Shown: positions 6,132-35,762 of the stretch, piece by piece
Numbering within the stretch: the first letter of the stretch is position 1
Layout: each line of letters starts with the position of its first letter
Source of the DNA: an uncultured Methanosarcinales archaeon
Lineage (GTDB): Archaea; Nanobdellota; Nanobdellia; Woesearchaeales; GCA-2686295
NCBI GenBank assembly: GCA_964402995.1
Contig: CAYOEA010000009.1
Span: forward strand, 4,974-68,973
Length of the DNA: 64,000 bases
Reading direction: 5' to 3'
Made by a program: the position numbers and the translations under genes
Notes under the pieces: model-generated
The model's database searches: none
The model's input: only the letters and a program-made list of their open reading frames with translations
Told to the model about the DNA's origin: nothing

Positions 6132-6980
6132 TTAGCTAAAAAAGCGTTCAACATTAGAAAATCTTATTTTTACGTAATCTTTTGCTAAAAGTCCGCTATT
6201 TTTTAGAGTCTCTAAAGCCCCCATTACATGCGTACTTCCTTTTGGTATTCTAAACCCTGCGCTTCGACTTAATTCATCTAATTGTTTTAATCCTTCTGCA
6301 CGTGCTATTATTGAGGCCGCTGCAACTTCAACATAACTACTCTCTGCTTTTGTTTCAGCTATATCTCCAACTCTACATCCTGGGTATAAGTCAACTACGT
6401 GAATTGAAATCTCAGTTTTCAACTTTACATTTACTTGTCTGTGAAGCTTATCCAATAGTCGAGTCACATTATCCACTTTTGTTAGCTCATTATACTCATA
6501 AGGCTTTAAGGAAACTACATAATAATTATTCGGGAAAGTTTTAACAAGACGCTGCGCAAGTATCATAATTGATGCATCTTCAAAAGTTTTTGAATCACCA
6601 ACGCCCATATTTTCGAGCTGCTCCCTTTCAGAACTGTTTGCTCTAAATCCTGCGACGACTATTCCTCCAAATGTATCTCCTTTTAGTGTTTCATCGCTTC
6701 CAACTATTTCTTCTGCAAGTGGTTCAAGTCTTGTTTGCTCATCTGCCGATTTAGTAAATTTAGAATTAGAAGTGGATTTTGAAACTTTTTGTTTTGCTTC
6801 TAATCCAAGAAATATCCTAACATCATTTGCAATCTCTGATTTCCCTTGAACCAATATTTTTCCTGTTTGATATAGAATTACGGTACATGGTCCTTGCATT
6901 CTTGCAATTTCATATTGTTTTGGACTTACAAAATTAAAGCCTTTAGCTTCTAATTTCTTTAGATTATCAATGTCTACCAA
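6132..6980 (-). CDS. rnhC: Ribonuclease HIII
   Basis: N-terminal TBP-like segment (TVILYQTGKILVQG), GSDE..KGD motif, VAAASIIAR; TTG start with AGGTGA Shine-Dalgarno inside the rnhB 3' end. Confidence 0.85.
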   Translation of the reverse strand: MVDIDNLKKLEAKGFNFVSPKQYEIARMQGPCTVILYQTGKILVQGKSEIANDVRIFLGLEAKQKVSKSTSNSKFTKSADEQTRLEPLAEEIVGSDETLKGDTFGGIVVAGFRANSSEREQLENMGVGDSKTFEDASIMILAQRLVKTFPNNYYVVSLKPYEYNELTKVDNVTRLLDKLHRQVNVKLKTEISIHVVDLYPGCRVGDIAETKAESSYVEVAAASIIARAEGLKQLDELSRSAGFRIPKGSTHVMGALETLKNSGLLAKDYVKIRFSNVERFFS

Positions 6981-6983
6981 TTT

Positions 6984-7640
6984 TTAAAACTCACCTAAAC
7001 GTTTCTGAGCAGCTTCTTTTTTCTTATTCTGCCAAGTCTCCCATGATTTTCTAAAATATTTTGAGAATTCAGTTTTATTCCAATATTTAGCTACAAATTT
7101 TTGAGTTATTGGATCTGATGCGTATCCTGAGCCAACTTCTTTTTTAATTGCTTTACGCATTTTCTCCATTTCTCTATCTCGAATAACTTTTGCAATTATA
7201 CTTGCAGCACCAACTATTAAATAATTTAAATCAGCTTTATGTTCTACTATTATTTCAGTCTTTTTTCGACCAAGTCTTTTCTTAATATAATCAGAATAAC
7301 TCTTCAAATTTCTACTTGGACAATCAAGTATTGCCTTATCAGGTTTTGCGGTCTTTACAAGCGCAGCTGTAGTTCTAGCTTCTATCCAATTCAAATTATC
7401 GGTCTTTGAATTTAATGCATCATCAACTTCACCAGGCGTCACAATTACATAATCAACTTTACATAATTCTTTAACTATAGGAAATAATTCTTCTCGCTTT
7501 TTCTTAGAAAGTAACTTAGAATCTTTTACACCTATTGCATGTAGTTTAAATTCATCTTCTTTTTTGATGCTTGCAATAGCCATTACTAATGGACCTAAAA
7601 CAGGTCCTCTGCCAGCTTCATCTACTCCTGCAATAATCAT
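6984..7640 (-). CDS. rnhB: Ribonuclease HII
   Basis: GVDEAGRGPVLGP, DSK, EHKAD, AASIIAKV.RD, GSGY.SDP. Confidence 0.97.
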   Translation of the reverse strand: MIIAGVDEAGRGPVLGPLVMAIASIKKEDEFKLHAIGVKDSKLLSKKKREELFPIVKELCKVDYVIVTPGEVDDALNSKTDNLNWIEARTTAALVKTAKPDKAILDCPSRNLKSYSDYIKKRLGRKKTEIIVEHKADLNYLIVGAASIIAKVIRDREMEKMRKAIKKEVGSGYASDPITQKFVAKYWNKTEFSKYFRKSWETWQNKKKEAAQKRLGEF

Positions 7641-15508: not shown

Positions 15509-15525
15509 CTATGCCGCGGTCGCAT
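15509..15525 (+). repeat. Upstream duplicate of the tRNA-Ser 5' end
   Basis: CTATGCCGCGGTCGCAT identical to 15579-15595. Confidence 0.85.
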
Positions 15526-15582: not shown

Positions 15583-15705
15583 GCCGCGGTCGCATAGCCT
15601 GGTATTGCGCAGGATTGCTATGTACAATTGTACGTATGAAAACCTACAATATCTCGCAGAGATCCTGTTCCTTTGGAATCATGGGTTCAAATCCCATTCG
15701 CGGCG
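15583..15705 (+). tRNA. tRNA-Ser(GCT) with a 41-nt intron at 37/38 (15621-15661)
   Basis: GCCGCGG/TCGCGGC acceptor stem, G73, CAGGA/TCCTG anticodon stem, long variable arm; BHB central helix TTGC/GCAG with TA|T and AG|A bulges (outer helix relaxed). Confidence 0.94.
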
Positions 15706-15745: not shown

Positions 15746-15836
15746 GGGTTCAAACACTCAAAAACAAAGTTTTTGGTGTGACCAAAAATCCCAAATTTTT
15801 GTGCATCCCATTCGCGGCGCCTTTTTTATTTCTAAA
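15746..15836 (+). pseudogene. Duplicated tRNA-Ser 3' fragment interrupted in the T-loop by a 51-nt palindromic element
   Basis: GGGTTCAAA (15746-15754) + insert 15755-15805 + TCCCATTCGCGGCGCCTTTTTTATTTCTAAA; 15805-15836 is identical to 15691-15722. Confidence 0.75.
15755..15805. repeat. Double-hairpin palindromic element, copy A
   Basis: CACTC-AAAAAC/GTTTTT-GGTGTGACC-AAAAAT/ATTTTT-GTGCA. Confidence 0.75.
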
Positions 15837-22005: not shown

Positions 22006-22052
22006 AAACTATTAGAAGAAGAAGCTGATTTTAATACTTTATTAAAAGAGAA

Positions 22053-22088
22053 AAACAAACAAACAAACAAACAAAGAAAGAAAGAAAG
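22053..22088. repeat. Compound microsatellite (AAAC)5(AAAG)4
   Basis: Read directly from the sequence, intergenic. Confidence 0.85.
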
Positions 22089-22130
22089 AAAAAAAGAAAG
22101 ATCAAAAAAAACTTTAATTAAATAACTAAT

Positions 22131-26009: not shown

Positions 26010-26552
26010 TCAAATTTTTTCTTTATTTATTTTTAAAAGATATCCTGTATAATGTGTTGCCAAGTGTAATATTGGAGTAAATAACAATAATGCTATAATG
26101 TATTTAAATTCTAAGAGATAAATTATTGAACTTAATAGTAATGCAACCACTGTAAAGTCCAATTGATCAAATGGAATCCATGGTTTTCCTGAAGGAATTC
26201 CTATTTGTCTTTTAAGAAATGATTCTATTAAATCTCCAAAGATTGCTCCAAAACCAAGTATAAATCCAAGCCAAATAGTCATCTGAGTATAATCAAATAA
26301 ACTTATCTTAGCAAACCAAGCAAATTGATATAACCATCTTTGTAATAGAAAACTTAAAACTCCAATTAAACTTGCAAAAAACAATCCACGAAAAGTTTTA
26401 TTCTTACCAAATATTCTTTTTCCACGAAAAGTCTTACCCATATCTACTGCTTGATTTAAGAAAGGAATTTTTTTAACTAAAGTTGGAGCTACATTTCCAA
26501 AATATGCAGGTACAAAAAAATACAATGCTTGAATTAATATATCAAATATCAT
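26010..26552 (-). CDS. carS: CDP-archaeol synthase (CarS/DUF46)
   Basis: PAYFGNVAP, DMGK...RIFGKNKTFRG, GDLIESFLKRQ.G...G.P..PFDQLDF. Confidence 0.92.
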   Translation of the reverse strand: MIFDILIQALYFFVPAYFGNVAPTLVKKIPFLNQAVDMGKTFRGKRIFGKNKTFRGLFFASLIGVLSFLLQRWLYQFAWFAKISLFDYTQMTIWLGFILGFGAIFGDLIESFLKRQIGIPSGKPWIPFDQLDFTVVALLLSSIIYLLEFKYIIALLLFTPILHLATHYTGYLLKINKEKI

Positions 26553-27041
26553 TTAGATCTTTTTAAATCTTAAAGTGCTTATCATCATGAAAGTAGACAC
26601 TAATAATACAGCATAATAAATGTTCAAAGTTGCACTTGCAAAGAAAAGTATTGGAAAAATAAATCCATTTATAGTTATTGGCATGCCAACAAATCCTTTT
26701 ATTTCTTTTCTTATTGAATTAAATCTTGCAAGTCTATAAGCTCCAGACATCACAAATAATATTCCTAAAATCATTATTAAAATTTGAGGAAATTGATTGT
26801 AAACTAATATTGCAGGCGCTACACCAAAAGAAACTAAGTCTGATAAAGAATCTAATTCCGCACCTATATCAGATTCAACAGACAACATACGTGCAACTCT
26901 TCCATCTATAAAATCAAAGAATACAGCTATTAAAATCATTATTGCAGATTCTACAAACATACCTAAAGTTGAAAGGTATATCGAAGTCATTCCGGATGCT
27001 AAATTTAACAAGGTAACAATATTTGCAATATGTTTCTTCAT
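26553..27041 (-). CDS. pssA: Archaetidylserine/phosphatidylserine synthase
   Basis: DFIDGRVAR...S..GAELDSLSDLVSFG, RLARFN, FVGMP. Confidence 0.93.
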   Translation of the reverse strand: MKKHIANIVTLLNLASGMTSIYLSTLGMFVESAIMILIAVFFDFIDGRVARMLSVESDIGAELDSLSDLVSFGVAPAILVYNQFPQILIMILGILFVMSGAYRLARFNSIRKEIKGFVGMPITINGFIFPILFFASATLNIYYAVLLVSTFMMISTLRFKKI

Positions 27042-27116
27042 ATAACTAAAACATGGTTAGTAATATAAAAATGTTTAGAAAAATAAAGACAAAAAGAATA
27101 AAAGAAAAGAAAATAT

Positions 27117-27629
27117 TTATTCAGTAGAACTTGATTGAAAAACTCGTTTTCCAAGTTCTCTATTATATAAGAATAAAGCACTTTTGTCCTCGTGAATCAT
27201 CTCTAAATTTTTAACAACTTCTTCAGATGATGCTTCTTCTTCTACTTGTTCATCAACAAACCATTTTAGAAAACTTTCAGTTGCATGGTCATTTTCTTCT
27301 CTTGATAAATTAACTAAATTATTTATTTTCTTAGTTATGAGTGTTTCATGTAAGAATGCTGCTTTAAATGCTGAAAGTGGTGTTTCCCAATTAGATTTTG
27401 GTTTTGCAATTTGTTCAAGTAAAACTTTCCCCCCTCTTTGAACTATGTAATCATAAAATTTCATTGCGTGAAATTGTTCTTCTTGAAACTGCACTCTCAT
27501 CCAACTTGCAAAGCCAGTATAATTTTTATCTTCAAAATCCGCTGCCATTGATAAATACAAATATGATGAAAATAATTCTTCATTTAATTGTTTGTTTAAT
27601 GCTTGTTCTAATTTTTCTGATATAGCCAT
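27117..27629 (-). CDS. ftnA: Non-heme ferritin
   Basis: QLNEELFSSYLYLSM, QEEQFHAMK, FLKWFVDEQVEEE. Confidence 0.95.
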   Translation of the reverse strand: MAISEKLEQALNKQLNEELFSSYLYLSMAADFEDKNYTGFASWMRVQFQEEQFHAMKFYDYIVQRGGKVLLEQIAKPKSNWETPLSAFKAAFLHETLITKKINNLVNLSREENDHATESFLKWFVDEQVEEEASSEEVVKNLEMIHEDKSALFLYNRELGKRVFQSSSTE

Positions 27630-27705
27630 TTTATTCTAATACCTCAAATATTCTTAAAATTAGTACAGAATTAATGTTTATAAATCATTTGGAGTATTGT
27701 AAGAA

Positions 27706-28323
27706 TTACTTAATTTTTGCAATAATACTTTTTCCTGCAAATACTTGTTCGCCTTCTTTAATTTGCAAAATAATATTTTTTGGTAAAATCATTGTTACTT
27801 GACTTCCAAATTTAATCATCCCCACTCTTTGCCCTTTCTCTATTTTTTGGTTCTCTGTAACAAATGGAACAATTCTTCGAGCAAATTTTCCTGCAATCTG
27901 AATAATTTTTACTTTCAAATTTCCTTTTTGAATTAAAATTTGTACATTTTCATTCTCATAAGTTGAACAAGTACTTCTTGCGTGAAAAAATTTTCCTTTA
28001 CTTGGTATAACAGATTTCACAATGCCTGCAATAGGAGCTCTATTCACATGCACATCATACATACTCATAAAAATAGATATCATATATCCTTCTTTTGCTA
28101 CATCCTTAGTAAAAGTCCTTACAATTCCAAATAAACCTTTTCTAACATCAAGCTTATTATCCTTATATTCTTTAATTGCAACAACCTCTCCATCAGCAGG
28201 AGAAACAATATTATTTCCTTTAGGTATTTCTCTCTCCGGATCTCTTAAAAACCATACTTGGTAATATAGCAAAAATCCAAGTACGAGTACTGCAATTAAA
28301 ATTAAGATAACAATTAGTATCAT
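27706..28323 (-). CDS. psd: Phosphatidylserine/archaetidylserine decarboxylase proenzyme
   Basis: FLRDPER, SPADG, IFMSMYDVHVNRAPI, NENV, QIAG..ARRI, self-cleavage motif KFGS. Confidence 0.95.
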   Translation of the reverse strand: MILIVILILIAVLVLGFLLYYQVWFLRDPEREIPKGNNIVSPADGEVVAIKEYKDNKLDVRKGLFGIVRTFTKDVAKEGYMISIFMSMYDVHVNRAPIAGIVKSVIPSKGKFFHARSTCSTYENENVQILIQKGNLKVKIIQIAGKFARRIVPFVTENQKIEKGQRVGMIKFGSQVTMILPKNIILQIKEGEQVFAGKSIIAKIK

Positions 28324-28458: not shown

Positions 28459-29802
28459 TTAAACTATTTTTCTTGCTTCAACGTAAAATCTTTTTTCATT
28501 TGCTTCACCCATAGAAAAAGTCTTTCTTGGTAAAGCTCCTTCAAGAATTACACTTTTAAAAAAACTATTTTTATCTATTGAATCTAAAAAGAATCCACAA
28601 TTACCAGTTTTTTGTCCAAGTTCACAAACTACATCAGTTCCATGCACATAATCAATTTCTTCCGCATTTCCTAAACTAACAAATTTATCTAAAAACTTTT
28701 GAAGCGTTCCATAAGTTAAATTTGAAGTTGGTTTATTGAAAGTAATTAATTTATAATTATTTAAATTAATAAAACCAAATATTTGCTTATCACCTGAATT
28801 CTCAACAGTTGTAATCATTTCTTCTTTTGAACACTCTTTAAACTCAAGAGTTTCACCAAATTCTTCTTTCAATGCGATTTCAAAATCTTTTTTCACATTA
28901 AATAATACTCTATGAATTGGTTCAAACTCCATTGCTTCAGAATGAATATTCATTAATTCAACTAAAGCAAATCTTGATGGATGATCCATACCTTTCTCAG
29001 ATTTTGTGCTTTCCCAAATTGTTTTTGCAGTTGCTAAAGAATGATTTCCATCTCCCATTGCAAATAATAATACATCTTCTTGACCATACTTATCTTTACA
29101 AACTACAGGATCAGCAAGTTTAGCAAGTTCAGTTAACATGTTATTTGAAGTTTCTAAATCAAGTCTATAACCTTTAACATGACCACCTTCCATCATTAAT
29201 TCAAAATCATATACTTTATCTAAATCTGATTTCAAACTCGTCAATGGTTCAATAACCTTCTTTTCTCTATCATCAATTAAAACCATTATATGAGGTAATT
29301 CAATTAAAGCATTTTTTCTAACTTCAACTCTAGGAGGTAACCTATCAACGATTGTTCCTTCAGTTGCTCTAATTAAACTTTTAGAATCAACACTAAAATC
29401 ATAATACTCTAAATCTAATGCTACAACTAATCCTTGTCTAGTTTTACCATTAATAGTTCTTTCAACATAAATTATTCCTTCTTCCTCACTCAAAAGTTTT
29501 TCTTTTGGTGCACTAGCAACTTCATTGCTCTGTGCTTCTAATAATTCTTGTTCTAAATACTCACTCATAGAATCATTTATGTTTTGTATTCTTTTTTCTT
29601 TATCCTCGTCTTTCAAATAAACTTCAGGATAAACTAATTTTAATGTTGAAGGTTCATCAGCTACTAATTCAGAAACACGTTTCCAATAGTCTGGTTCACT
29701 TGTATATTGATCACAAGCTACAACTGCCCATTTAGTCATGTCCACATTCTTGTTTGGTAAAAGAATTTTTGGTATTTTTACTCCTATGTTTTTAAAATCC
29801 AT
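28459..29802 (-). CDS. DUF1015 family protein carrying an in-frame palindromic insertion
   Basis: KWAVVACDQYTS, IRATEGT, ELPHIM.LIDD, MGDGNHSLATAK, EPIHRV, LPRKTFSMGEA. Confidence 0.88.
   Translation of the reverse strand: MDFKNIGVKIPKILLPNKNVDMTKWAVVACDQYTSEPDYWKRVSELVADEPSTLKLVYPEVYLKDEDKEKRIQNINDSMSEYLEQELLEAQSNEVASAPKEKLLSEEEGIIYVERTINGKTRQGLVVALDLEYYDFSVDSKSLIRATEGTIVDRLPPRVEVRKNALIELPHIMVLIDDREKKVIEPLTSLKSDLDKVYDFELMMEGGHVKGYRLDLETSNNMLTELAKLADPVVCKDKYGQEDVLLFAMGDGNHSLATAKTIWESTKSEKGMDHPSRFALVELMNIHSEAMEFEPIHRVLFNVKKDFEIALKEEFGETLEFKECSKEEMITTVENSGDKQIFGFINLNNYKLITFNKPTSNLTYGTLQKFLDKFVSLGNAEEIDYVHGTDVVCELGQKTGNCGFFLDSIDKNSFFKSVILEGALPRKTFSMGEANEKRFYVEARKIV
29487..29535. repeat. Double-hairpin palindromic element, copy C (inside DUF1015 CDS)
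   Basis: CACTC-AAAAG/CTTTT-GGTGCACT-AGCAA/TTGCT-CTGTGC; read on the minus strand as AQSNEVASAPKEKLLS. Confidence 0.75.
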
Positions 29803-29928: not shown

Positions 29929-29977
29929 CACTCAAAAACTAAATGTTTTTGGTGCACCAACAATTAATTGTTGAGTG
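29929..29977. repeat. Double-hairpin palindromic element, copy B (overlaps ppdK stop)
   Basis: CACTC-AAAAAC/GTTTTT-GGTGCACC-AACAA/TTGTT-GAGTG. Confidence 0.75.
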
Positions 29978-32594
29978 TCTCTCTTACTGCTGCTTGTGCT
30001 GCTGCAAGTTTTGCAATTGGAACTCTAAATGGTGAGCAGCTTACATAGTTTAATCCTACTCTATGGCAAAATTCTACTGATGATGGCTCTCCGCCGTGTT
30101 CTCCACAGATTCCAAGTTTAATTCCAGGTCTTGCTTGCTGTCCTTTCTTTACAGCCATTTCTACTAATTGACCAACACCTGTTTGATCTAATACTTGGAA
30201 TGGATCTTTTTCTAAGATTCCTTTTTCTACGTATTCTGGAACGAATTTTCCTACATCGTCTCTTGAGAATCCCATAGTCATCTGTGTTAAATCATTTGTT
30301 CCAAAGCTAAAGAACTCTGCTTCTACTGCAACTGCATCTGCAACTAATGCTGCTCTTGGAACTTCAATCATAGTTCCAACCATGTATTTTACATCTGTTC
30401 CGTCTAGTATTCTATCAGCTGCTGCAACAATAATTGCTTTTTGATTTGTAAATTCTTCAACAGTACCAATTAAAGGAACCATAACTTCAGGTTTTACTGA
30501 AATTCCTTCTGCTGCAACTTCTTTTGCTGCTTCAAAGATTGCTTCTGCTTGCATTTCTGCAATTTCAGGATATGTAACTCCTAATCTACAACCTCTGTGA
30601 CCAAGCATTGGGTTTACTTCATGTAAGCTTTCGATTTTGTGTTTTAAATCTTCTATACTTACGCCAAGTTCACCTGCAATTTCTGCAATGTCTGTTTCAG
30701 CTGTTGGTAAGAATTCATGTAATGGAGGGTCTAACAATCTAATTGTGATTGGTTTTCCTTCCATGATTTTGAATAATGCTTTGAAGTCATCTTTTTGGAA
30801 AGGTTTAATTTTCAAAAGAGCTTTTTTTCGACCTTCTAAGTTTTCACTCATTATCATTTCTCTAACAGCTTTGATTCTATCACCTTCAAAGAACATATGC
30901 TCAGTTCTGCATAGACCAATTCCTTCTGCACCAAATTTGATTGCTTGCTGTGCGTCTCTTGGTGTTTCTGCATTTGTTCTAACTCCCATTCTTCGGAATT
31001 TATCAGCAATATCCATTAACTTTCCAAAGTTTCCTGTAAGTTCTGGATCAGTTGTTGGAATTTTTCCTGCGTAAACATCTCCGCTAGTTCCATCAAGTGT
31101 AATGTAATCTCCTTCAGTGAATTTTTCTCCACCTAGTTCTAATGATTTTGCTGCTTCTGAAATTCTTGCATCCCCTAAACCTGATACACAACATTTACCC
31201 ATTCCACGAGCTACAACTGCTGCATGTGAAGTCATTCCACCTTTTGCAGTTAGAATTCCTACTGCTGCGTCCATCCCAATTAAATCTTCTGGACTTGTAT
31301 CATTTCTTACCAAGATTACTTTTTCACCAGCTTGTTTTAATTCTACTGCTGATTCATTTGTAAATGCAATTTTTCCTACAGCTCCACCTGGTGATGCTGG
31401 AAGACCTTTTCCTAAAGATGTGTGTTTTTCTTTTGCAACATGATCAAGTTGTGGATGTAATAACTGATCAAGTTGATTTGGATCTACTCTCATTACAGCT
31501 TCTTTTTCTGTAATTAATCCTTCATCAACCATTTCTACAGCCATTCTTACTGCAGCTTCAGCTGTTCTTTTTCCATTTCTTGTTTGAAGCATATAAAGTG
31601 TTTTGTCTTGGATAGTAAATTCCATATCTTGCATATCTTTGTAGTGCAATTCTAATTTTTTATAGATTGCAACAAGCTCAGCATATGCTTGTGGCATAAC
31701 ACTTTCTAACTGTGAGATTGGTTGTGGAGTTCTAATTCCTGCAACAACGTCTTCTCCTTGTGCGTTCATTAAATATTCTCCATAGAAATAGTTTTCTCCT
31801 GTTGATGGATCTCTTGAGAAACATACTCCAGTTCCACTTGTTTCGCCCATATTTCCAAAGACCATTGCTTGAATATTTACAGCTGTTCCATCTAATCCTT
31901 TGATGTCATTCATTCTTCTGTAAACAATTGCACGATCATTGTTCCATGAACCAAATACTGCTTCTATTGACATAATTAATTGTTCTTTTACATCAATTGG
32001 AAACTCTCTTCCTGCATGTTCTTTGATAGTTTCTTTGTATTTTTCTACTACTTCTTTTAAGTCATCAGCTGATAAGTCAGTATCAAATTCAACGCCTTTT
32101 GTTTCTTTGATAGTTTCTAATACTTTTTCGAAATTAGCATGCTCTACACCCATCACTACATCTCCAAACATTTGAAGAAATCTTCTGTATGAGTCATAAG
32201 CAAATCTATCATTTCCTGATTTTGCTGCAAGACCTGCAACTACTTCATCATTTAATCCTAAATTTAGAATTGTATCCATCATTCCTGGCATAGATACTGC
32301 AGCTCCACTTCTTACTGATAATAATAACGGACTTTCACTATTTCCTAGCTTGCTTTCCATTTCTGATTCAAGCGTTACTAAGTGTTGATCGATTTCTGTT
32401 AATGCTGCTTCTGAAAGTTTTTTTCCTTCTGTATAAAATTCAGCACAAGTTGCAGTTGTTATTGTAAATCCTGGCGGTACTGGCACACCAATATTTGCCA
32501 TTTCTGCTAAGTTAGCTCCTTTGCCACCTAGAATGTTTTTCATACTCTTTTCGCCTTCAGTTCCTTTTTTACCGAAGTAATATACATGTTTCAT
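29964..32594 (-). CDS. ppdK: Pyruvate, phosphate dikinase
   Basis: GGKGANLAEM, SVRSGA..SMPGMMDT, GGMTSHAAVVARG, GLCRTEHMF, SFGTNDLTQ, GICGEHGG. Confidence 0.99.
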   Translation of the reverse strand: MKHVYYFGKKGTEGEKSMKNILGGKGANLAEMANIGVPVPPGFTITTATCAEFYTEGKKLSEAALTEIDQHLVTLESEMESKLGNSESPLLLSVRSGAAVSMPGMMDTILNLGLNDEVVAGLAAKSGNDRFAYDSYRRFLQMFGDVVMGVEHANFEKVLETIKETKGVEFDTDLSADDLKEVVEKYKETIKEHAGREFPIDVKEQLIMSIEAVFGSWNNDRAIVYRRMNDIKGLDGTAVNIQAMVFGNMGETSGTGVCFSRDPSTGENYFYGEYLMNAQGEDVVAGIRTPQPISQLESVMPQAYAELVAIYKKLELHYKDMQDMEFTIQDKTLYMLQTRNGKRTAEAAVRMAVEMVDEGLITEKEAVMRVDPNQLDQLLHPQLDHVAKEKHTSLGKGLPASPGGAVGKIAFTNESAVELKQAGEKVILVRNDTSPEDLIGMDAAVGILTAKGGMTSHAAVVARGMGKCCVSGLGDARISEAAKSLELGGEKFTEGDYITLDGTSGDVYAGKIPTTDPELTGNFGKLMDIADKFRRMGVRTNAETPRDAQQAIKFGAEGIGLCRTEHMFFEGDRIKAVREMIMSENLEGRKKALLKIKPFQKDDFKALFKIMEGKPITIRLLDPPLHEFLPTAETDIAEIAGELGVSIEDLKHKIESLHEVNPMLGHRGCRLGVTYPEIAEMQAEAIFEAAKEVAAEGISVKPEVMVPLIGTVEEFTNQKAIIVAAADRILDGTDVKYMVGTMIEVPRAALVADAVAVEAEFFSFGTNDLTQMTMGFSRDDVGKFVPEYVEKGILEKDPFQVLDQTGVGQLVEMAVKKGQQARPGIKLGICGEHGGEPSSVEFCHRVGLNYVSCSPFRVPIAKLAAAQAAVRETLNN

Positions 32595-33384: not shown

Positions 33385-33696
33385 TTAACCAGTATGATAA
33401 TAACCAGCCATACAAACACCGCCTCCAGTGCAAGTAGAAGAACAAGAACCTCCCGTCCAAGAACCACACGAACCAACTTTATATGCATAACCATCATCAT
33501 CAAATTCGAAACAACCACATGATAATGACTGAGTCGCAGGTGGTCTACTTGGTCTTTGACCAGCAATATTCTCATCATTTAAATCTATTGGCACTATTTT
33601 TGTCGCTGATTTACCACCAATTAATACAACTAGTGCAACAATTGCCACCATTGCTACAATTGCAATATAAACCATTGCATTATTATTTTCAGACAT
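33385..33696 (-). CDS. Small membrane-anchored/secreted 6-Cys protein, cassette 1
   Basis: Leader MSENNNAMVYIAIVAMVAIVALVV...NIAG, then a Gly/Ser-rich core with 6 Cys; AGGTGA SD. Confidence 0.8.
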   Translation of the reverse strand: MSENNNAMVYIAIVAMVAIVALVVLIGGKSATKIVPIDLNDENIAGQRPSRPPATQSLSCGCFEFDDDGYAYKVGSCGSWTGGSCSSTCTGGGVCMAGYYHTG

Positions 33697-33777
33697 TTTA
33701 TCACCTTTTAGTTTAATTATAAACTTAATAAGAAAAATAATCAGATTAATACTATTTAAATATTTCTACAACTCTAT
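33630..33777. repeat. Constant unit of the cassette array (leader + promoter), copy 1
   Basis: Near-identical to 34751-34899; more diverged copy at about 34166-34322. Confidence 0.85.
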
Positions 33778-33939
33778 ATCAACAAAATAATAATCAGAAT
33801 ACACCTATCACATAAATTTCTAACCCCAAAAAAAACTGTGTTTTAAAAATATTTATAGTATAGAATATATGTTAAAGAAAAATTATAAAATTAAAGAAAA
33901 AAAGAAAAAAATTCAAGATTTAAATTTGAGATTATATCT

Positions 33940-34239
33940 TTATTCCCAGTTAGCTGCTGCGCCAGCATTACATCTAGTTACACAACCTGAATCATATCCT
34001 GTACAACATCTTTCACATTCTGATGCTGGAGGAGCAGTACAACCAGAGCTATACATAGTATTACCGCCAGTAGATAATTTTCCTGAAGATGCAAAAGCTA
34101 ATCCTGCTTGATTTGCGTCATCCATGCTTAATACTTTTGTTGTTGAATTTCCACTAATAACAACTACTAGTGCTACTATTGCTACCATTGCTACAATTGC
34201 AATATAAACCATTGTATTATGATCATTATTTTCTACCAT
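33940..34239 (-). CDS. Small membrane-anchored/secreted 6-Cys protein, cassette 2
   Basis: Leader MVENNDHNTMVYIAIVAMVAIVALVV...NQAG; core with C-x7-C-x2-CC-x6-C-x3-C. Confidence 0.8.
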   Translation of the reverse strand: MVENNDHNTMVYIAIVAMVAIVALVVVISGNSTTKVLSMDDANQAGLAFASSGKLSTGGNTMYSSGCTAPPASECERCCTGYDSGCVTRCNAGAAANWE

Positions 34240-34389
34240 CTTATCACCTTTTAATTTAATTTTAACTTAATAATACCTCATATTTTAGATTAATACTATT
34301 TAAATATTTCTACAACTCTATCTTGACAAAAAAATAATCTTAATTTAAAAATCAAAGAAGAAATAAATAAAAAATTAAAAAAAAATTAA

Positions 34390-34818
34390 TTAGTAAATTG
34401 ATCCTGCTGCTGCCTTAGCCGAACACCCACTACCACCGGAATAACCAGAAGGAGGATTACATTCACACTGTCCACTACCTTCCTTTGAACAAGTACCAGT
34501 TACAGTTGAACCATCAGAATCTTTTGTAGCAGTACATGTTAACCAACACCAAGTACGAGCCGCATCAGCTTCATGCCAACCACTTGCACCAGGAAGACCA
34601 TATGATCCAAATGATTCTAAAGGATTAGATGCTTGAGTTGATCTTAAAAAAATTCTTGAACTTGCTAATCCTGCTGAATTTGCATCAACATCATTCACAA
34701 TAGGTTCTAAACTTACAACTTTTGTTGCTGAATTTCCATTAATAACTACTACTAGTGCAACAATTGCCACCATTGCTACAATTGCAATGTAAACCATTGC
34801 ATTATTATTTTCTACCAT
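34390..34818 (-). CDS. Small membrane-anchored/secreted 6-Cys protein, cassette 3
   Basis: Leader MVENNNAMVYIAIVAMVAIVALVV...NSAG; longer core with 6 Cys. Confidence 0.8.
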   Translation of the reverse strand: MVENNNAMVYIAIVAMVAIVALVVVINGNSATKVVSLEPIVNDVDANSAGLASSRIFLRSTQASNPLESFGSYGLPGASGWHEADAARTWCWLTCTATKDSDGSTVTGTCSKEGSGQCECNPPSGYSGGSGCSAKAAAGSIY

Positions 34819-34887
34819 TATATCACCTTTTAGTTTAATTATAAACTTAATAAGAAAAATAATCAGATTAAATCTATTTAAATATTT

Positions 34888-35658
34888 CTACAACTCTATC
34901 TCGACAGGACAATGATCAGAGCCTAATATTTCAGGCAATATTTTTGCAGATTTTAACTTTCCAATCATTTTCTGAGAGACTAAAAAATAATCTATTCGCC
35001 AGCCAACATTTCTGCTTCGAGCACCCATTCTATAACTCCACCATGAATATGCGTCTTCTTTGTCAGGGTAGAAATGTCTAAAACTATCAACAAGTCCAGC
35101 TTCTAAATGCTTAGTCATTCCTTCTCGTTCTCTATCTGAAAACCCAGGACTTCCAAGTTTAGTTGCAGTAGTCATATTTGGCTTTGAATTTTTCAAGTCA
35201 ATTTCTTTATGCGCAGCATTTAAGTCCCCGCATATTACAACTGGTTTTTTCTTATCTAAATCCATTATAAAGTTTCTAAACGCATTATCCCATTCGACTC
35301 TATAATCAATTCTTGCTAACATATCTTTTGAATTTGGAGTATAAACATTTACTAAAAAAAAGTCTTCATATTCTAAACTTATAACTCTACCTTCTTGATC
35401 GTGTTCTTCAATACCCATATCATAAATTACCGCGTAAGGTTCAACTTTTGAGAAAACTGCTGTGCCTGAATAACCCTTTTTTTCTGCACTATTCCAATAT
35501 TTATATGGATAGTCTAGCAGCATTAAATCTACTTGTTCAGGTCTGGCTTTTGTTTCTTGTAAACATAATACATCAGGTTTCTCTGAGTTTACAAATTCGT
35601 AGAAATTTTTCTTTATTATTGCTCTTATTCCATTTACATTCCAAGAAATTAGTTTCAT
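34888..35658 (-). CDS. xth: Exodeoxyribonuclease III / AP endonuclease
   Basis: SWNVNG, LCLQETK, GYSGTA, NVYTPN, CGDLN.AH, WRIDYF, SDHCPV. Confidence 0.97.
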   Translation of the reverse strand: MKLISWNVNGIRAIIKKNFYEFVNSEKPDVLCLQETKARPEQVDLMLLDYPYKYWNSAEKKGYSGTAVFSKVEPYAVIYDMGIEEHDQEGRVISLEYEDFFLVNVYTPNSKDMLARIDYRVEWDNAFRNFIMDLDKKKPVVICGDLNAAHKEIDLKNSKPNMTTATKLGSPGFSDREREGMTKHLEAGLVDSFRHFYPDKEDAYSWWSYRMGARSRNVGWRIDYFLVSQKMIGKLKSAKILPEILGSDHCPVEIEL

Positions 35659-35699: not shown

Positions 35700-35745
35700 C
35701 ATTCAAAAGCAATACTTTTGATGCGCCAAAACGTTAGTTTTGTGC
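35700..35745. repeat. Double-hairpin palindromic element, copy D (intergenic, upstream of xth)
   Basis: CATTC-AAAAG/CTTTT-GATGCGCC-AAAAC/GTTTT-GTGC; CAT/ATG is a compensatory change of CAC/GTG. Confidence 0.7.
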
Positions 35746-35762
35746 GTTTGAGCATCATCTTA

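Follow-up and report, generated by a model that had tools for sequence, protein, structure and literature searches.

The stretch of DNA analysed here, referred to below as the window, comprises 64,000 nucleotides (nt) of contig CAYOEA010000009.1 (assembly GCA_964402995.1), deposited as an uncultured Methanosarcinales archaeon and placed by GTDB among the Woesearchaeales. Within it, the gene for a DUF1015 family protein contains, in frame, a 48-nt member (copy C) of a family of short repeats made of two neighbouring hairpins. Probably, copy C is a non-autonomous mobile hairpin doublet that landed in a permissive loop of the DUF1015 protein and is translated with it, as happens with the Rickettsia palindromic elements (RPEs). 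This interpretation rests on the membership of copy C in the family, on the covariation of the hairpin stems, on its being an insertion relative to homologous proteins, on the recurrence of such insertions in other genes and on the predicted location of the additional residues in a loop.

Copy C carries the family motif on the plus strand and is read as codons on the minus strand, where it specifies (A)QSNEVASAPKEKLLS(E). As proposed in a preliminary description of this DNA, the open reading frame (ORF) of the DUF1015 gene runs through the repeat without stop or frameshift, its translation reading ...YLEQELLE-AQSNEVASAPKEKLLS-EEEGIIYVERT... The coordinates given there for the insert (29487-29535) proved accurate to within one base, the 16 insert codons spanning positions 29488-29535 and the unit delimited by CAC...GTG positions 29487-29534. 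The description had further anticipated a difference of 16-17 amino acids from homologous proteins, which were thought to have a short linker at this point. An alignment of 120 sequences bore out the first claim and part of the second: the difference amounts to 16 residues and the segment is absent from the homologues, but not even linker residues are present, the insert columns being empty in 119 of 119. When the opposite outcome was checked, namely an equally long segment in the homologues, no residue was found in any of the 119 sequences. A separate alignment showed a clean 16-residue gap in all of 16 close homologues. Removal of the CAC...GTG unit of copy C yields LLE-EEE-G, with the same spacing as in the homologues. 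The same DUF1015 protein, identical throughout, is encoded on four contigs, and two of the sources are separate datasets, an assembly from the European Nucleotide Archive (ENA) and the Logan assembly of SRR8526173; the insert is therefore not an artefact of assembly. At locus L003, copies B and C of the repeat score as they do in the window.

Mapping the insert on a predicted structure, another step put forward in the preliminary description, placed it where an extra segment could be accommodated. The AlphaFold2 model of the DUF1015 protein, built on the 120-sequence alignment, has a mean predicted local distance difference test score (pLDDT) of 86.9 and a predicted template modelling score (pTM) of 0.86. 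The sole segment with pLDDT below 50 comprises residues 93-106, within the insert, and DSSP assigns the insert region of the model to coil, flanked by strands 88-90 and 111-117. The insert is thus predicted to form a disordered loop between two beta-strands, in keeping with the fold. Copy C itself, read as mRNA, forms two hairpins, which account for 68% of the ensemble (-13.1 kcal/mol, z -3.3).

The window contains three occurrences of the motif CACTCAAAA-N5-10-TTTTGGTG, where 0.00 are expected by chance, and none of 100 shuffled sequences contained any match. Two covariance models of the element, R1 and R2, were used, the latter built from 16 intergenic copies of other genomes only (one of these seeds, L044, has a one-base typing error of no material effect). 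As the pattern used to gather the training copies of R2 had been made from B and C, ascertainment accounts for the first hairpin that they have in common; no such bias affects copy D or the insert of a second DUF1015 protein described below (P0007), neither of which fits the pattern. Covariance searches run with filters off returned just four strong copies in the 64 kb, designated A to D (see the table), with the best score always on the plus strand; no additional copies were found in the other 10.7 kb of the 74.7-kb contig. Copy D was recovered by nhmmer and by both covariance models, though it belongs to neither training set, and it folds into two hairpins (-14.7 kcal/mol, z -3.6). The identity of copy C to the other three ranges from 58 to 73%. 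Among in-gene copies, R2 detects copy C and those of P0007, L007 and L033 (see below) at E values from 3e-8 to 9e-7. The family was missed by a generic repeat finder, in whose output A/T-rich low-complexity matches dominated, and blastn-short was equally noisy.

Coordinates of the repeat copies, their host gene and associated genes in the window.
Feature	Position	Strand	Remarks
DUF1015 family protein (host gene)	28459-29802	minus	PF06245; 447 aa, intact ORF
Copy C	29487-29534	motif on plus, read as codons on minus	hairpin doublet, 48 nt, inside DUF1015; R1 56.9 bits; R2 40.6 bits, E 3.4e-8
Copy A	15755-15805	plus	~51 nt; in T-loop of duplicated 3' tRNA fragment; R1 49.1 bits, R2 42.1 bits
Copy B	29929-29977	plus	49 nt, best preserved; between DUF1015 and PPDK; R1 64.2 bits, R2 59.2 bits
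Copy D	35700-35746	plus	47 nt, degenerate; intergenic, between two minus-strand genes; R1 39.8 bits, E 2.8e-8; R2 39.0 bits, E 8.7e-8
Pyruvate phosphate dikinase (PPDK)	29964-32594	minus	ORF list; Pfam PPDK_N / PEP-utilizers; PDB alignment
Intron-containing tRNA gene	15583-15705	plus	'empty site' for copy A; Rfam RF00005, 40.6 bits

The element is 47-54 nt long and consists of two neighbouring hairpins, which can be written [CAC-u-CAAAA(A)nn-loop-nnU(U)UUUG-GUG][CAC-stem-loop-stem-n-GUG]. Each hairpin is closed by CAC/GUG, which confers dyad symmetry on the element as a whole. CAC...GTG ends are found in nearly all copies, and longer ones, CACTCAA...TTGAGTG, in copy B and in a copy from another genome (L024). 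When base pairs were counted in 22 distinct copies, aligned by MAFFT without reference to the structure, 89.1% of cells were paired, as opposed to 38-46% when the partners were slid by 1-3 columns. Compensatory double changes affect 12 of the 22 pairs, and the observed covariation was reached by none of 500 shuffles. RNAfold predicts two hairpins in almost every copy, and the model of the element matches on both strands. The term "palindromic" applied to the repeat in the preliminary description is appropriate for its overall symmetry but not in the sense of one long palindrome, since there are two hairpins in tandem. A single long palindrome was considered and rejected; copy B alone forms one long stem in its minimum-free-energy fold. 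Searches of Rfam yielded only two tRNAs at the gathering threshold in the window, no family at E <=1 around the element and none at E <=0.1 in three related loci. The core CACUCAAAA / UUUUGGUGCAC is the same across Aenigmatarchaeota, Nanoarchaeota and other metagenome-assembled genomes (MAGs) of the DPANN archaea, partly through ascertainment as the scan pattern required it; the core common to DPANN phyla measures 20 nt.

The other copies in the window show how the element relates to resident genes. Genes end just upstream of copies B and D, and a stop codon falls within B, whose segment 29964-29977 provides the last four codons of the PPDK gene, T-L-N-N, together with the TAA stop. The C-terminal alignment to the PPDK of C. 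symbiosum ends at ...AAQAAVR, five residues short of the stop. Thus, a second copy in the window also adds coding sequence. Copy A splits a partial duplicate of a tRNA gene, and the intact gene discloses the site before insertion. The 3' end of the tRNA reads GGGTTCAA|ATCCCATTCGCGGCGCC; in the fragment, 51 nt are inserted at this point, followed by 32 identical bases, with an ambiguity of 1-2 nt in the exact insertion point. The intact gene, not called by ARAGORN, has a long variable arm and probably specifies tRNA-Ser. A 13-nt duplicate of its 5' end is present 70 nt upstream (15513-15525), and the duplicate of its 3' end and trailer, which is exact over 31 nt and harbours copy A, lies 114 nt downstream (15746-15836). 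These duplicates look like remnants of integration or duplication events.

In-gene copies in other genomes were sought by DNA scans combined with the analysis of ORF context. This search, akin to the one that the preliminary description had suggested in the proteome for (S/G)APK-like inserts whose DNA matches the repeat, uncovered a second DUF1015 protein with the insert at a different position, an Lhr helicase and, as a candidate, the tail of an FKBP-like protein. The DUF1015 protein, P0007, comes from an unrelated run and is 58% identical to the one in the window. Its insert, TLSNEVAGAPKQKVLS, is encoded by a 48-nt member of the family (R2, 39.3 bits) and lies 14 residues downstream of the window site, beyond the conserved block E(E/K)EG(I/L)IYVERT; the synteny of the DUF1015 and phosphatidylserine decarboxylase genes is conserved at this locus. 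In the Lhr-type helicase of a 'Nanobdellati' MAG (L007), a 48-nt member specifies the insert TYSSGATGAPKDKLLSE, in a segment of 63 residues compared to a mode of 40-44 in 120 Lhr homologues. Another Lhr helicase, P0145 (L057:911-962), carries a diverged 54-nt member in the same loop as L007, in the opposite orientation and with an open frame. Finally, an FKBP-like ORF found at two loci (L033 and L051) has TRSSKTTGAPKQNVLSE, a candidate insert, in its C-terminal tail. Copy C and the P0007 insert are identical at 40 of 48 positions, their host genes being 74% identical at the DNA level. The idea that the inserts are closer to each other than the host genes was rejected, as 21% of 48-nt windows of the host genes match equally well. 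It is the difference in position, not the degree of identity, that speaks for two independent events.

Excision in silico reveals the ancestral sequence with precision. Removing the repeat from P0007 gives G-K-T-R-Q-G, where the conservation of the lysine (K120) across the family reaches at least 90%, and removing it from P0145 gives G-K-L-R, as in its homologue P0148. In P0007, P0145, L007 and copy C alike, exact removal of CAC...GTG restores the frame and the conserved residues, so that no bases remain to make up a target-site duplication. The five junctions examined read GAAG|AGGA, GGTA|AAAC, GAAA|AAGA, AAAA|AAGC and GGTA|AATT. Four of the five fall within an A-run, which suggests a preference for insertion into A-runs, although the genome is AT-rich. 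Taken with the two sites in DUF1015, the loop common to P0145 and L007 suggests that the same protein loops, or a target of the GGTA|AA type, are used time and again.

The copies residing within genes differ as a group from those between genes, in a way that bears the mark of selective survival. All four in-gene copies read in the (S/G)APK frame are exactly 48 nt long and leave the frame open. The 20 distinct intergenic copies measure 47-54 nt, none of them 48 nt, and the (S/G)APK frame is closed in 15. Runs of T on the sense strand do not exceed four in the in-gene copies (T5 in 0 of 4) and reach five or more in 15 of the 20 intergenic ones (Fisher p 0.012, from a sample that is small and not phylogenetically independent). 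The limit in genes would be in keeping with an avoidance of oligo-T runs that signal termination in archaea.

Exact-pattern scans picked up 21 loci in 185,579 species genomes and a further 28 in metagenomes of the Joint Genome Institute (JGI). About 12 of the 21 species-genome loci are real copies of the element, and their labels are either DPANN (Aenigmatarchaeota, Nanoarchaeota, Nanoarchaeia, 'Nanobdellati') or those of three Methanosarcinales MAGs. The other genome loci were dismissed as chance bacterial matches, lacking the second hairpin and scoring only 25-32 bits. No match to the core motif was found in viral contigs. As for the Methanosarcinales labels, L006 and L008 have 28-29% G+C and L024 has 41%; a 270-kb metagenome contig (L050) includes the sequence of L006 unchanged. 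The contigs of low G+C so labelled may be mis-binned DPANN DNA.

Two larger repeats incorporate the doublet. In the Aenigmatarchaeota genome JACPRW01 (L011, L012, L014, L015, L018, L022), a MITE (miniature inverted-repeat transposable element) of about 150 nt is present in many copies, 95-100% identical, with ends of the form TA|TAGTGGACCAAC...GTTGGTTCACTA|TA; it carries the doublet at its centre and two more hairpins on the flanks. From this central position within a TA-flanked MITE, it appears that the doublet can hitch-hike in a larger, TA-duplicating element. In metagenome Ga0256913 (L030, L032, L035, L038, L041, L044, L049), a multi-hairpin repeat of more than 300 nt and 27-30% G+C, comprising, besides the doublet, one or more other hairpins closed by CAC...GTG, is found on at least seven contigs.

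The course of events we envisage is the following. A 48-nt copy would have inserted into the DUF1015 gene, leaving no detectable target-site duplication; we infer that a transposase mediated this step. The length being a multiple of three and the frame in use free of stops, the copy would be transcribed and translated with the gene, and the translated insert would give rise to tryptic peptides such as LLEAQSNEVASAPK. The protein would tolerate the 16-residue loop, with an effect that is neutral or nearly so. As to how the element moves, its hairpin ends, the lack of duplication and the junctions in A-runs favour, among mechanisms, one in which hairpins are recognised on single-stranded DNA (HUH/RAYT-like or IS200/IS605-like, RAYT standing for REP-associated tyrosine transposase and REP for repetitive extragenic palindrome); we regard such a mechanism as possible, though on the doubtful side.

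Several observations weigh against mobility and translation as the explanation of copy C. Neither the 74.7-kb contig nor about 320 kb of related loci yielded a transposase or any other gene for mobilisation; specifically, tblastn with IS200 TnpA and RAYT probes gave nothing at E <0.3 in the ~320 kb, and the genes between paired copies are housekeeping genes according to Pfam. The copies in the window are diverged, as seen above for copy C relative to A, B and D, and bear no sign of a recent burst. No polymorphic site, empty in one strain and filled in another, was seen between strains. Translation of the insert is itself something we infer. The 20-nt core shared by DPANN phyla and the compensatory changes in the stems would also fit a structural motif selected by the host. 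Finally, two independent insertions into the same loop region, in two genes, suggest targeting or strong filtering; random selfish insertion does not predict such hits.

Alternatively, the double hairpin would be chiefly a cis-acting element selected by the host (a protein-binding site, or a signal for mRNA stability, processing or termination) that spreads only rarely, in the manner of domesticated REPs. An in-gene copy may then be regulatory, acting in pausing or mRNA processing, rather than neutral baggage. The covarying stems and the CACUCAAAA / UUUUGGUGCAC core, identical across DPANN MAGs, speak for such a role, even if the scan pattern, by demanding the core, accounts for part of its conservation. 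So does the fact that the window copies, old and diverged, still fold, as well as the position of B and D just past the ends of genes, with B over a stop codon. The distribution of T5 runs (15 of 20 intergenic copies against 0 of 4 in genes) would make sense if T5 is an archaeal termination signal. However, mobility is evident from the insertions in coding loops and in the tRNA fragment, from the families of 95-100% identical copies elsewhere and from the nesting in a TA-flanked MITE, and the exact 48-nt length of the stop-free in-gene copies is left unexplained. We therefore consider a primarily regulatory origin unlikely; a cis-acting function is compatible with the mobile doublet as an added layer, not as a replacement for it.

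A very improbable alternative is that the 48 nt behave like an intron and are cut from the mRNA, for instance by the archaeal splicing endonuclease acting on a bulge-helix-bulge, which would leave a mature protein without the 16 residues. DPANN archaea do have tRNA introns, one of them in the window, copy A lies within tRNA-derived sequence, and the compact, structured unit can be removed precisely to give back the ancestral codons. Yet a spliced element needs neither a length of 48 nt nor the lack of stops seen in four of four (S/G)APK-frame copies (the fifth, in opposite orientation, is 54 nt long and open); the intergenic copies vary in length and mostly have stops in that frame. The folds are closed hairpins with 1-nt bulges instead of the pair of 3-nt bulges, with a 4-bp helix between them, that a bulge-helix-bulge would show at the junctions, and no intron family in Rfam matches. 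The bulge-helix-bulge proposal was rejected on the strength of these folds and of the 48-nt, stop-free in-gene copies. Effectively refuted is the notion that the loop arose in place, by slippage, duplication or drift of small insertions and deletions, with a coincidental likeness to the repeat, or that it is an assembly artefact. Lineage-specific loops are common, chance similarity is raised in an AT-rich genome of low complexity, and the 40/48 identity between copy C and the P0007 insert is unremarkable given how often windows of the host genes are as similar. Coincidence is nonetheless contradicted by the motif expectation of 0.00, by the E value of copy C with the independent model R2 (3.4e-8), by the conserved two-hairpin fold (z -3.3) and by the same element elsewhere in an orthologue and in unrelated genes; the identical protein on four contigs, with two places from separate datasets, speaks against the artefact.

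The host protein matches the PF06245 profile over positions 1-324 of 325 (195.6 bits, E 1.4e-57) and retains every invariant column of the family in the 120-sequence alignment. A homologue search with it found 8000 proteins; the top non-self match, at 58% identity, sits in a cluster named Candidatus Woesearchaeota. No DUF1015 homologue was found in the PDB by sequence. In a Foldseek comparison, the fold of the model was similar to those of SbnI and of SerK, a free serine kinase (E 4e-5; TM, relative to the target, up to 0.67). The gene adjoins those for phosphatidylserine decarboxylase, a CDP-alcohol phosphatidyltransferase and CarS (26010-28323). The likeness to SerK and SbnI in the predicted structure, together with these neighbours, hints at a role of DUF1015 related to serine or phosphoserine in the synthesis of lipid head groups.

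The window has 30% G+C and contains typical genes of an archaeal chromosome, including those for SMC, two RNase HII, topoisomerase VI A/B, HerA/NurA and primase, as well as RIO kinase, GatD/E, CDC48, CarS and the intron-containing tRNA. Together with the Woesearchaeota match of the DUF1015 protein, this makes a DPANN archaeon the most likely source of the DNA. The RNase HII paralogues are adjacent (6132-6899 and 6984-7640), the upstream one having 65 extra N-terminal residues and a weaker profile match. A unit of about 230 nt is present in three tandem, diverged copies of 70-89% identity (33590-33815, 34127-34359 and 34712-34937), overlying minus-strand ORFs of 103, 99 and 142 aa; these are paralogues, few in number, that probably encode membrane proteins. 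An intergenic AAAC/AAAG tetranucleotide tract resembling a microsatellite occupies positions 22045-22123.

DPANN genomes are tiny and streamlined and are regarded as holding little mobile DNA. The family described here is common to several DPANN lineages, persists between genes and has repeatedly been written into conserved proteins, with two cases each in DUF1015 and the Lhr helicase and a probable one in an FKBP-like protein. It offers a clean case of new protein sequence derived from selfish or structural DNA, in which the states before and after the event can be specified to the base, and it carries the phenomenon known from RPEs to a third, very distant group of organisms. The double hairpin, the lack of target duplication and the recurrent insertions in the same loops provide a handle with which a new archaeal mobilisation mechanism might be found. 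On the practical side, such inserts make DPANN proteins look more divergent than they are and can lead their alignments, phylogenies and structure predictions astray.

In the summaries given in PMC2229807 and PMC10969869 of the work of Ogata et al. (2000), RPEs are described as single long stem-loops of 105-146 bp in Rickettsia, an alphaproteobacterial genus, that occur between genes, in frame within conserved genes, and also in tmRNA and M1 RNA; for one host gene, gmk, translation and enzyme activity are said there to have been demonstrated experimentally. The DPANN element shares with them small size, palindromic character, lack of autonomy, a distribution both intergenic and in frame, preservation of the ORF and placement of the added segment in a tolerated loop. 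Both also have copies in RNA genes, the DPANN element in a tRNA-derived fragment. In contrast, the DPANN element is archaeal, measures 47-54 nt, consists of two short hairpins and has no recognisable sequence relationship to RPEs; it is known from sequence and predicted structure, whereas the gmk product was tested experimentally. The comparison with RPEs and with Methanocaldococcus jannaschii drawn in the preliminary description therefore holds for behaviour and fails for family membership: the element is RPE-like in what it does and is not a member of the Rickettsia RPE families.

Archaeal palindromic repeats with some copies inside undisrupted coding regions are already on record for M. jannaschii. 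Suyama, Lathe and Bork reportedly described three such repeats in 2005, MJRE1-3, mostly extragenic with a few non-disrupting coding copies; MJRE2 is an in-frame palindromic repeat. They differ in belonging to a euryarchaeal lineage (Euryarchaeota). The core-motif scan of the 185,579 species genomes returned no Methanocaldococcus locus, which argues against identity with the MJRE repeats without being a proper test of it.

Parallels in architecture are found among REPs and their paired forms, the REPINs (REP doublets forming hairpins), which are mobilised by RAYT (Y1 HUH) transposases, the products of a single-copy gene that REPINs typically flank. Both are inverted doublets of short imperfect palindromes that form hairpins as single strands and insert without target-site duplication, with conserved sequence beside the stem, a variable loop or spacer and diverged copies that persist. 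REPINs have been described from bacteria, outside genes, and to date as "not detected in archaea" (bioRxiv 10.1101/2021.07.10.451892), and the REP tag is GTAG or CGTC (PMC3733652). The DPANN element has neither tag, its conserved flanks being CACTC and GGTG, and no RAYT-like gene was detected by tblastn in the ~320 kb searched. With IS200/IS605-derived (PATE-like) elements, which insert beside a fixed short target, it has hairpins and the absence of target-site duplications in common; no TnpA was found in the same ~320 kb by tblastn. Classical MITEs (Correia, ERIC, RUP) resemble it in their terminal inverted repeats, non-autonomous nature and intergenic location, and ERIC and the 107-bp Correia element have been found fused in frame to ORFs (PMC2229807). 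They are usually 100-400 bp long with a target-site duplication, often TA, whereas the DPANN element is about 50 nt and has none. A census of prokaryotic MITEs reports high densities in some DPANN genomes and does not describe coding insertions (PMC11602168); a literature search on DPANN archaea and palindromic or repetitive elements found nothing relevant. One may speculate, although we hold it rather unlikely, that this is a first REPIN-like system in archaea, in which ~50-nt doublets spread across DPANN would be mobilised as single-stranded DNA, possibly by an enzyme domesticated by the host, would enter A-runs free of duplication and would repeatedly give rise to loops in essential proteins of minimal-genome organisms, the same loops being hit independently in different lineages. 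The combination of a tiny doublet, insertion without target-site duplication, a core that crosses phyla and same-loop insertions could make the family more than another RPE-like case if its mechanism is REPIN-like.

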